A model generated the notes under the pieces. That model made no database searches and was not told the origin of the DNA. It worked only from the letters and a program-made list of their open reading frames with translations. 64,000 bases of DNA from Octopus vulgaris (Eukaryota), in NCBI GenBank assembly GCA_951406725.2, contig OX597842.1, positions 4,030,001 to 4,094,000 on the forward strand. Direction: 5' to 3'. Each line of letters begins with the position of its first letter. Positions within the stretch are counted from its first letter, which is position 1. Below, in pieces: positions 15,740-37,565 of the stretch. A program made the translations under genes and the position numbers.

Positions 15740-16082
15740 CACTGAGCCGCAGGTTTTATGTCGGAGTTATCCCAGATACCTGAGTTACCTTCTCCTAGAA
15801 GGATGCTCTAACAAAGGCTAGGAGTCCTTCACTCCCAATGGTTTAACCGCGCGATCGGGTATTCATTCCGATTATTTCTATGTCCCCGCGCATGAAACAG
15901 CCTTAAGACATTTATTGGCTCTCAAGAGTTCCTCCGCCCTTTGACGGGTTTTGTTTTTCATCCCGCAGGGTGTCCAATAAACACTCTCCTCACCAAGCAA
16001 GCTTGGTGGGGTTGCCGGTTTAGTCGCCGACGACCCGACCATGCAACAGGTTGTACTGGGTTACATGTTATCAGTAGCACTC
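15740..16082 (-). mobile_element. RTE-clade 5' UTR-like fragment with candidate HDV-like ribozyme at its 5' end
   Basis: Minus strand contains ctaggagaaggtaactc, resembling an RTE 5' UTR motif (recalled). A nested double-pseudoknot-like pattern lies at 16015-16072. Confidence 0.5.
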
Positions 16083-16084
16083 AA

Positions 16085-16330
16085 TAGTAAAGTTTATTTG
16101 CCAACATAACGTAGCAGTCCTATACAAGGACGATGTTACTGTCTTTTAGCTCCAGGAAACCGTCTTTTCCTATAGGCTACTGAAACACAGTTTTTGCTCG
16201 TGTAGCATATGGAAGGGAGGGGATTGCTCCCATCTCTAGCTTTACGTGATACTCAAACACCTAGGTTTCTGAGTAGTTACTCCCCCTCAGTGTGAGACAA
16301 TCACCGGGCTTTGATAGAGGCCTACACCAC
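16085..16330 (-). mobile_element. Diverged relative of the 34748 fold-back arm, with a decayed hammerhead (16252-16296)
   Basis: Shares tgttactg...ttttagc(t/c)ccagga and gtgatac...aatcacc with 34748-34965. Reverse complement CACA CUGAGGG GGAGU aacu ACUC A GAAAC CUAG GUG. Confidence 0.6.
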
Positions 16331-16351
16331 TTGCAAATACTATATATATAA

Positions 16352-33967: not shown

Positions 33968-33970
<3 letters not shown>

Positions 33971-34155
33971 TGTGATCACGTAACCGACCAGGGTATCAGA
34001 TGTTGCTACACATCACTGGTCACAATGCGCTTCGCATTGTTTTAGCCTTCGAATGACGCCACCCCGCTGGCAAAGCGAGCAGGCCTACAGAAGAAGGAGT
34101 GAGAGAAAGTTGCGGCGAAAGAGTACAGCAGGGATCACCACCACCCCCTGCCGGA
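33968..34155 (-). mobile_element. SINE-C 3' part with RTE-like tail
   Basis: Body matches 43255-43325 and 61182-61250. Confidence 0.8.
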
Positions 34156-34217
<62 letters not shown>

Positions 34218-34747
34218 CAGTCATTTTGACTGCGGCCACGCTGGAGCACCGCCTTAAAGGGGTTTTAGTCAAAGCAATCGACCCCAGGACTTATTCTGGA
34301 TCTAGTTAAACTGATTCACAAAATATGCCTTTGTTTAAAAGAAGTAAAAACAATCTGAAAATCGGCTATAATAATGTAGTTTTGTAGTCTTATTGCTATG
34401 AAGGTATGATGTTGTGGAGTAAAAAAAATGAAAGAAAGAGTTACAAAGGTTAAAAATCGAAAATACTGTGCATTTTTAGCCAATAGCGAGACAGGAATTT
34501 TCTGCGTTTAGCAGAGCGATGTCAACTTTAAGGATGTATTCTGTGAAATGTATAGGTTAGCGTCTGTAAAACGACCTGTAGATTTCTAAATAAACAGAAA
34601 TGCTTAATAGAATCAACATGTATCATCTTACTGTTTCCTTTGTGTCTTCATTGATAGTATGCTTTAATTACTTTTTCTTAATTTGCTATATTAATATAGC
34701 ATTATTAAATCTCAGAACGAGATGTAAACAGTAATCGCTCGACAATG

Positions 34748-35152
34748 TAAAGTATAATAGCCATCTCAATATGGCTAACCACAAAGAGGGGTGTTACTGT
34801 AGCTTTTAGCCCCAGGAGATCATCGTCTCCAGCTGGCTTTAGGCACCCTTTCTGTGCCCTTATGGTATTTGCAAAGGGAGGCCATCTCTTTCCCGTAAGC
34901 CTAAGTGATACGCACCGGACCGCGGTTTCGAGATTATTGTCTCTTATCAACGGGCGGTAATCACCGGATCACGATGAAAGACAAGGCCTGCAAATATATA
35001 AGAGAAAGGGATGGCCTCCCTTTGCAAATACCATAAGGGCACAGAAATTGTGTCTAAAGCCAGCTGGAGACGATGGTCTCCTGGGGCTAAATAACTACAG
35101 TAACCCCCACCCCCTTTGTGGTTAGCCAAATTGAGATGGCTATTATACTTTA
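34748..35152. mobile_element. ~400-bp fold-back element with a hammerhead in the loop
   Basis: Arms 34748-34893 and ~35003-35152 are highly complementary. Confidence 0.92.
34915..34953 (-). ncRNA. Minimal type I hammerhead ribozyme, U3:A8 core variant
   Basis: Reverse complement CCG UUGAUAA GAGA caauaa UCUC GAAA CCGCGG UC CGG; stem I extends via CGC/GCG and GUGAU/AUCAC. Confidence 0.8.
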
Positions 35153-37565
35153 TATGAATATATTTGTCTGCATATGATTACTTTATGCGAATTTCAGTAT
35201 AATGTATACCTGTCATGTATTCGTGTATATCATTAATATAATAGTGCGCGCGTGGGCGTGGGCGTGTGAAAAGGAGGTCTGTCTCCTAAACTCCAAAACT
35301 GAGTAACGTTTTCATGCTTGAATTTGTAAACTACGATAAGAATAACACTGGTCAACAAATAATAGATCTTTTCAATCTTACCGACATATATTTTAATCAT
35401 TTTTTTTTTTTTACTAAACACTTTGAAACTTCAGATACTGGTAGAATGTGTCACATAGAACAGGGTCTATTCTTAACGTTTTTGGCAAAATTTTGTATTT
35501 TAGAAGTTATTTCGTGTTAAAGTTGTCGTATTTGGGTAATTTTAACCAATCAGTGACGTGTATTCAGCTGAAGAAAATTACTGCTGCTGTTTGCGAACAA
35601 CTTCCGGGTCCACTCCCTAACAAAACCCTTCTTTAATAACAAGAGATATACCAGGGTTGATTTGAGGCTAAATAACAACAAAATTATTACTAAGACAGAC
35701 CAACGACGCAGCTTGTATGTGGTTGCATGACCTGCTAGAAAAAGTAGCCAAACTTTTTTTATATAAAGAATAGAAAAACCTCTATCCTGTGATATACACG
35801 TAGAGTCCATTATGTCTGGATAGAAAGACGGAATGGTCTTTGATCTGTTCAATCAGATCCGACTCGGGACTAAACAAGTGACGAAGGGAACGAGACGAGG
35901 CAACGAGTGAGCCTTCACCTGGTCGCTCGAGTTGCTAGAAAGAGCAGCCAAATCTTCCTGACAAAAAGAAAAATGAAATTTCCGTCTTCACGAAAAACAT
36001 ATAATGCAAGTTTATATTAGTTTATAATGTTCGCTTAAGAATTCATTACATCTAGAAAGGAATAAGACAATATGGTCATGGCTGGAACGCCTTTTCTCAC
36101 ATATCCATTACAATCAGAGCTATCCTGTGGTTAAAACAATATTCTTCACTGAATGATGAAGCAGCTAAAGTTAAAGTAAAGTTGAAAGAATAGAAGATAG
36201 CAAGTATCCATATTCCAGATATTGGAATTCCCTTATAAAATACTATAAACTAATATACGGAAAAATTGAAACAAAATACGCAAATGAAAAGAATTTATTG
36301 GTGTGAAGAATCCACTCAGAACAACGTGCGACACAGACACGGGTGAAATACATCACAGCGCGCAGTTGTCATGGTAACAAGCTGATAATGCCACGCTGTC
36401 TGTTGATTGGCTAAAATTACCCAAATTTCCCAACTTTAATTCCGAATAACATCAGATTCTTTAACTTATGAGATAAAGTAATTGGTTGATCGTAATCAAA
36501 ATTCAAAGTTGCATCAATACACCAAAATTTTAAGTAATCTGAGGAAATGAAACTAACCAGATCCCTAATTCTTTGTAAGCCTGGTACTTATGCTATCGTT
36601 CTCTTTTGCCGAACCGCTAAGTTACGGCAACATAAACACACTAACATCGGTTGTCAAACGACTGTTGGGGGATAGGGGCACCATCTTGAAGAATTTTAGT
36701 CGAATGAATCTACCCAAGTACTTAGTATTAGTTTGTAAATCTTGCTTCTTATTTTATCAATTTCTTTTGCCGAACCGCTAAGTACGGGCTTCTTTAAGTT
36801 TCCATCTACCAAATCTACTCACAAGGCTTTGGTCGGTCCTTGGCTACAGTGGGAAGACACTTGGTCAAGATGCCGTGCAGTGGGATTAAACTGAAGGCCA
36901 CAGGTCAGGAAGCAAGCTTCTTACCATACAACCAGCCGTGCCTATATGTATGATAATGTTATATAACTGTTAAAGTTGTTGTTCATCTGTTATATATATC
37001 TATTATACAGTAGTTGTTCATCTAACCAAACTGTTTTATTTCTATATTATCGCCTGCTTGAACCAACTAACCAAACATGACCCTGATGTCACTATCTTAC
37101 AGTTCATGTGTGTCGCCTGATCTTTTCTCTAGTCTGTCGTCTGTTTCAATCAAATATTTTTTGAAATGGAAACAACTAAACCTAAACGAAATAAACAAAA
37201 TGAACACATGAAACAGGAAAATAGAACAACAGACTGTCTAGCAGTCATGGAAAACTAAATAAAATATAACTCAATGATCATAACAAGAAACTAACACAAA
37301 AATACAAGAATTATGTCTGAAAGACAAAGACAGATAGTCATTTTTTTTACTGACAGTTTTAATTTAACAACGCCATATTGGTGCTTCATAGAACAATACT
37401 TCCCTCTAAACATTAACCAAAATTAATCATCCAAACACAATCTCGTTATTCATACCTCTAAAGCGAAGGCACTCAAAATTATTTTCCCACCGTACCCCTT
37501 CAACAAGTTCATGCACGTCGTATGAAGAATATGAAGTAAAATGGCGTGATATCATAGAATAGAGT

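Follow-up and report, generated by a model that had tools for sequence, protein, structure and literature searches.

The hammerhead insertion of the window

The element described here lies in a 64,000-nt stretch of Octopus vulgaris DNA (contig OX597842.1, forward-strand positions 4,030,001 to 4,094,000), to which we refer as the window. The whole insertion runs from 34699 to about 35152 and is bordered by two copies of a target-site duplication (Table 1), which is AT-rich and, on its own, a weak sign of integration. The 454 nt between the duplications consist throughout of sequence of a 355-nt repeat unit, and the RT and GIY-YIG ORF by which an autonomous PLE would be recognized is absent from them. 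The two arms of the fold-back (~34745-34892 and 35004-35152) are 90.7% complementary, and the 46-nt tail has no partner on the opposite arm.

A first-pass annotation of this DNA had described a minus-strand UUGAUAA hammerhead between complementary arms, and we confirm its presence. The minus strand of 34905-34964 contains a type I hammerhead with a U3-A8 core, as first seen, and a 28-nt core pattern that allows any base at positions 3, 7 and 8 matches the genome exactly 224 times, with 0 matches for the reversed control. Core positions 3-9, G12-A13-A14, A15-U16 and H17 follow each other in type I order, with a Watson-Crick pair at 3:8. The annotation had also called all stems intact, which is overstated for stem III, with only 2 bp closed by a palindromic tetraloop. 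The insertion is larger than the claimed 34748-35152 and extends, through the tail, to 34699. Rfam gave no match in the window at the gathering threshold, hammerhead models included.

Table 1. Parts of the insertion and of its hammerhead, in window coordinates.
Feature	Position	Strand	Remark
Left target-site duplication copy	34687-34698	.	12 bp, AT-rich; one mismatch to 35151-35162
Right target-site duplication copy	35151-35162	.	partner of 34687-34698
46-nt tail; outer end is unit position 355, the first fixed insertion end	34699-34744	-	97.8% identical to family tail
Sense arm, 3' part of the monomer	34745-34892	-	end at unit position 309, the second fixed end
Type I hammerhead; 3x1 internal loop between the distal and proximal parts of stem I	34905-34964	-	
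Stem I, 5' strand	34956-34951	-	
Core UUGAUAA	34950-34944	-	U3-A8
Stem II GAGA/UCUC, 4 bp, 6-nt loop CAAUAA	34943-34930	-	
GAAA	34929-34926	-	
CCGCGG, stem III of 2 bp with palindromic loop	34925-34920	-	
U16-C17, then CGG	34919-34918	-	
Predicted cut	34918/34917	-	from the hammerhead consensus
Monomer lacking its 5' part; covers positions 46-355 of the 355-nt unit	34699-35004	-	spans the predicted cleavage site
Inversion junction, 3-nt microhomology (CTC on the minus strand)	35002-35004	.	sequence read against the unit
Inverted second copy, unit positions ~157-309	35002-35152	+	no tail, no hammerhead

None of the runs on record as RNA was listed as holding the sequence. In contigs of three presumed RNA runs and one unclassified run, the element is deeper than most of its flanks and the repeat starting near 35408 is equally deep; no listed piece of the contig overlay spans the stretch of the element. 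Loose contig ends at window 34913 in two runs lead into additional hammerhead subfamilies whose stem II is GGGA/UCCC, one of them apparently with G8 and one with A8.

Several other repeats are found nearby. In the contig overlay, the copy number of the repeat that starts near 35408 is very high. Two 50-nt inverted arms (35503-35552 and 36404-36453; 80% complementary, 851 nt apart) possibly belong to a non-autonomous DNA transposon. Between two long TA microsatellites, a GC-richer insert of 190 nt (33969-34158) is probably a short mobile element fragment.

The repeat unit and its sister families

The genome (2.8 Gb, 227 contigs) was searched with the region of the insertion, which gave 4457 first-look candidates; 40 of these were scored, and all scored places are 77-100% identical. 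Since many copies match the loop and one arm only, the unit is not the fold-back. Reading the flanks of the copies, we found a monomer of 355 nt that occurs singly, in tandem and inverted, and the copies in the core-pattern list have a tandem spacing of 356-361 nt. We refer to this family as A. Of four related families, two have units of 353 nt (family B, 69% identical to A) and 358 nt (family C, 64% identical to A); sister families are 62-69% identical. The units of 353-358 nt are non-coding, form dimers and longer arrays and contain one type I hammerhead each, as is typical of retrozymes. By eye, units A, B and C share a short frame starting 19 codons before the tail end, a candidate relic of an ORF start.

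Family B was reached through the single match of a loose C3-G8 pattern. It is a very young C3-G8 retrozyme whose best copies are 97-99% identical to the query (L076-L104, e.g., G000:C4:22081747-22084465), arranged in arrays of at least five full units with inverted parts, mostly within TA microsatellites. By its sequences, it is the best candidate for current activity. Family D (L146-L157) is a U3-A8 retrozyme with 95-97% identical copies and a stem III segment, ACAUGU, which it shares with the motif of an autonomous PLE. Family E is older. A decayed copy lies in the window itself (16065-16348, minus strand); its core is of the C3-G8 type, its stem III palindrome reads CCUAGG, and its best relatives are 76-82% identical.

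The unit might also be the terminal repeat of an autonomous PLE that has escaped detection, its short copies being 5'-truncated insertions of that element. Most PLE insertions are indeed 5'-truncated, pairs of minimal hammerheads on opposite strands, 100-700 bp apart, have been ascribed to truncated PLEs (PMC4209133), and our search for PLE families is far from complete. Against this, every long copy runs upstream of the hammerhead into the tail of the previous monomer, closing a repeat of 353-358 nt, up to five or more full units stand in one insertion, and no examined copy runs on into an ORF. In its 6-bp stem I and 4-bp stem II, the hammerhead also follows the canonical form of retrozymes, whereas PLE minimal hammerheads have a long stem II. 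We thus regard a derivation from such a PLE as very unlikely and treat the unit as a retrozyme.

The 3:8 core pair

According to the first-pass annotation, U3-A8 is a compensatory replacement of the C3-G8 pair, a claim that turned on whether UUGAUAA is the consensus of the family. U3-A8 is found in 221 of the 224 copies that match the core pattern exactly; one copy has C3-A8, two combine U3 with U or C at position 8, and C3-G8 occurs in none. A CUGAUGA consensus with single changes arising independently is thus not what the family displays. We further ran a profile on 97 loci, which yielded 154 hammerhead matches; six partial ones were dropped, leaving 148 aligned copies of three families. U3-A8 is present in 86 of them and C3-G8 in 60 (59 in family B and one in an old copy of family A), with two mismatched, so that 146/148 copies have a Watson-Crick pair at 3:8 and the compensatory nature of U3-A8 is borne out. 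All 14 rows of family D have U3-A8, and family E has mostly C3-G8. It was also correctly anticipated that CUGANGA searches miss such cores: three of the five families would escape them.

In a tree of 67 rows, families B and E (C3-G8) stand apart from A, C and D (U3-A8) at 100/98, in a run in which the bootstrap had not settled and with an uncertain midpoint root on a long branch. Because B and E are joined at 100/98, one swap separates the C3-G8 and U3-A8 groups, and we interpret the change at 3:8, from these sequences, as probably a single event between clades. This bears on the claim that the double change is a sign of selection for cleavage. Retention of the 3:8 pair and covariation of the stems speak for it, but with a swap that probably happened once there are no repeated double changes to count. 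The old family A copy mentioned above (L009:1658-1720, minus strand) has C3 and G8, with C at position 4, inside the U3-A8 clade, possibly through a second swap, conversion or decay.

The U3-A8 core variant itself is already published and ordinary for specialists. Natural U3-A8 covariation was reported in 2011, with in vitro activity cited (Perreault et al., PMC3088659), and about 1,300 U3-A8 motifs, associated with PLEs, are given for Schistosoma mansoni (Cervera and de la Pena 2014, PMC4209133).

Predicted folding and support for the stems

The 421-nt region has a predicted folding energy of -278.7 kcal/mol (z = -27.9), and none of 100 shuffled sequences folds as well. Within the monomer of this insertion, the hammerhead fold is predicted (secondary structure only) to be 5.6 kcal/mol less stable than the minimum-energy fold, whether the local sequence or the whole fold-back is folded, with predicted pair probabilities near 0 for stems I and III. 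In no family is the hammerhead the predicted minimum of the monomer, the gap being 3.6-7.7 kcal/mol, which we count against our preferred explanation.

For covariation, 22 representative copies were picked by hand. In these, 94% of the cells of the named structure are paired, compared to 30-57% for slid structure controls, and 10 of its 20 pairs have changed on both sides; none of 500 shuffles scores as high. As the rows are mutually related, these values represent support and not a probability. Both stem III pairs are invariant in this set.

Among the 148 aligned copies, 133 have a perfectly palindromic stem III segment, represented by five different sequences, and two further palindromes are found in families D and E. 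Self-duplexes of these segments are predicted at -4.6 to -14.1 kcal/mol, and none folds as a hairpin alone. Dimer cleavage was reportedly treated by Lunse et al. in 2017. Selection for cleavage on the mobile lineage is suggested by the sequence patterns, predicted dimers being the probable active form. A palindromic stem III is a known dimer arrangement of type I hammerheads in animals (PMC4209133).

Ends, junctions and target duplications of inverted insertions

An unselected sample of 40 loci was taken in list order from the first 100 pattern matches, skipping loci that had already been fetched and ignoring architecture. Inverted insertions make up 21 of the 40, and the other 19 are in a single orientation; 19/40 touch a TA microsatellite. 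Insertions end at one of two fixed unit positions, 309 or 355, which are 46 nt apart. Over three sets, including a family B set that is biased because its query ended at the short end and a top-A set that is biased because the fold-back itself was the query, 54 inverted insertions were analyzed. Forty-eight have one tail and one non-tail end, one has two non-tail ends, none has two tails and five could not be classified. The unselected set alone has the tail and non-tail combination in 17 of its 21 inverted insertions. This combination of two fixed 3' ends with the tail between them, a 5'-truncated copy in inverted orientation and a tail at just one side (48/54) is the mark of insertions mobilized by PLEs. 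A limited search of the partly accessible literature gave no description of paired tail and non-tail ends in retrozymes.

Where flanks are unique, target duplications of 9-18 bp are found at 25 of 39 loci, namely 20/23 inverted and 5/16 non-inverted insertions; mismatched-flank controls gave a duplication in 13 of 1482 cases. Dispersed insertions with duplications longer than 4 bp agree with retrozymes, and the low rate of non-inverted insertions (5/16) counts against our preferred explanation. The inner junctions are scattered from unit position 1 to 323, without pile-up at the cleavage site (3/42 with 2.0 expected, and 0/28), and inverted copies carry one to five hammerheads.

These architectures bear on the reading, after the first-pass annotation, that selection maintains the hairpin and that its loop serves to display the ribozyme. 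The fold-back would then function as such: its RNA would form a long hairpin that the hammerhead opens in the loop, e.g., to yield a dsRNA or small-RNA precursor. Its fold is very stable, the core of the window copy is intact, and at least 11 other loci have a similar arm-loop-arm form, though they were found using the query from this locus. Moreover, a hammerhead with a 2-bp stem III and a tetraloop cleaves as a monomer in invertebrate retrozymes (PMC7229834). The variable junctions and hammerhead numbers are at odds with a conserved hairpin, however, and the window arms are hardly more alike than arms of different loci (94.6% over aligned columns, against a mean of 93.5% and a best of 97.8%). 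Integration fully explains the one-sided tail and the duplication, and the lone hammerhead of the loop has no stem III partner while its fold is predicted at 5.6 kcal/mol above the minimum. A functional hairpin is therefore highly improbable, and the long fold-back is most likely a by-product of PLE-type integration, in which one end received the tail and the other did not.

A MITE, or an inverted duplication made at the DNA level after insertion, that encloses the hammerhead by chance would share the size of about 400 bp, the long terminal inverted repeats and the target duplication. With a tail on one side only, the repeats are asymmetric, each locus has an internal junction of its own, and the unit also occurs as direct tandem arrays or single-orientation copies (19/40 sampled loci). 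Neither symmetric inverted repeats nor a fixed, shared internal structure was found; the MITE reading is largely refuted and we consider it extremely unlikely.

A candidate PLE partner

A search for GIY-YIG, in which 150 of 6136 candidates were scored, revealed PLEs with RT and GIY-YIG in the genome, with a 781-aa open frame in 16 of the 148 matches listed. In a young PLE of this type, the 781-aa RT/GIY-YIG frame is preceded by an upstream ORF of up to 479 aa, giving a two-ORF layout (L061, L062, L065-L068, e.g., G000:C16:20835000-20841000); this upstream ORF has no convincing Pfam match. The terminal repeat of the young PLE contains an AU-rich hammerhead motif of the minimal type; its core is U3-A8, its stem III palindrome is the one seen in family D, and it is found in 17 of the 44 loci scanned, with two pairs overlapping. 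The PLE also has two fixed ends, about 38 nt apart (seven and two of the nine loci shown). The tail of this one intact PLE family, of about 38 nt, is only loosely like the 46-nt tail of the unit, and this counts against our preferred explanation. The terminal repeat of the 781-aa PLE has no alignable similarity to unit A, and BLAST and the three-family profile found no homologous terminal repeat in the 44 GIY-YIG loci, only separate retrozyme insertions, which also counts against our preferred explanation. For the partner enzyme, the young 781-aa PLE is a candidate only.

Proposed origin of the insertion

We consider it very probable that the window feature is an insertion of a 355-nt non-coding animal non-LTR retrozyme, and that its fold-back arose when a PLE RT/endonuclease primed synthesis on both strands of a break. 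All steps of this mechanism, i.e., twin priming, the circular template and the strand assignment, we infer from the architecture of the copies. Tandem copies would give multimeric transcripts, which the hammerhead would cut, probably helped by the pairing of two palindromic stem III segments, and the products would be ligated to circles. The PLE enzyme would make nicks staggered by about 12 bp in AT-rich DNA. Of the two cDNAs, one on each DNA strand, one would begin at the end of the tail and the other at a site 46 nt farther upstream, and they would meet at a short microhomology. The template would be a circular or multimeric unit RNA; cleavage site and unit junction are both traversed by the cDNAs, which a linear monomer left by cleavage could not have allowed. 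In the window copy, one cDNA would have run 310 nt through the ribozyme and the other would have stopped after about 150 nt. As one passed the ribozyme and the other did not, the hammerhead would have been left in the loop by accident.

A bolder version, which we put forward tentatively and hold to be quite possible without calling it probable, takes the strict end pairing (48 of 49 classifiable insertions) as the record of an asymmetric PLE complex. Two RT sites would act on one circular retrozyme RNA, each serving one DNA strand, from starts separated by 46 nt, and both would roll through the hammerhead junction. The same version has U3-A8 as perhaps the ancestral core throughout the genome, common to the active PLE, with the youngest family reverted to C3-G8. 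If true, the asymmetric complex would be direct genomic evidence that PLE enzymes move retrozymes.

The way in which tandem and inverted PLE copies are made was called still undefined by Craig et al. (PMC8557442), and insertion ends offer a simple genomic test of how PLE enzymes make them. They also tie retrozymes to PLEs by mechanism, beyond co-occurrence.

Comparison with known systems

Both animal retrozymes and the inverted and tail-bearing insertions of PLEs are already published. Animal retrozymes of 170-400 nt yield abundant circles (Cervera and de la Pena 2020, PMC7229834), and Li, Clavereau and Pollet regard retrozymes as non-autonomous PLEs, arguing from distribution and terminal-repeat homology (bioRxiv 10.64898/2026.07.22.740005). 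As far as these two sources describe them, metazoan non-LTR retrozymes resemble the octopus elements in having a non-coding tandem unit of 170-400 nt (350-390 nt in mussel) with low GC, one type I hammerhead per unit with a short palindromic stem III, target duplications longer than 4 bp and co-occurrence with PLEs. Three of the five octopus families differ by their U3-A8 core. Inverted insertions with a tail and a non-tail end are common in octopus, unlike in metazoan retrozymes as described: the accessible text of the Li preprint does not contain the word “tail,” and “inverted” appears in a reference only. Circular RNA and cleavage have been demonstrated for the metazoan retrozymes, whereas for the octopus elements they are predictions. 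Among Xenopus retrozyme dimers, one of nine cleaved in vitro (bioRxiv 10.64898/2026.07.22.740005), and we count this against our preferred explanation.

A 5'-truncated copy in inverted orientation and, at one end, a tail of 30-40 bp are typical of PLE insertions (Craig et al. 2021, PMC8557442). Frangieh et al. (2024, PMC11167929) found that a purified PLE protein cuts both strands and extends them, and that the tail is defined by its two RT start sites. For an Anolis PLE in vitro, the same source describes an RT start without strand difference and a hammerhead that is dispensable for insertion, which likewise counts against our preferred explanation. According to these accounts, PLEs and the octopus elements are alike in their partial tandems, inverted 5'-truncated copy and one-end tail, in AT-rich or microsatellite targets and in a hammerhead located upstream of fixed ends. 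The octopus unit is different in that it has no ORF, its tail is 46 nt and not 30-40 nt long, and it closes on itself as a 355-nt repeat.

With the natural U3-A8 hammerheads described previously (PMC3088659, PMC4209133), the octopus elements share the same compensatory swap at 3:8. In octopus, the U3-A8 pair is part of the canonical type I hammerhead of a retrozyme, and C3-G8 sister families in one genome represent natural controls. The five related families, with U3-A8 or C3-G8 and seven stem III palindromes, thus form a natural series for the study of the 3:8 pair and of dimer cleavage.
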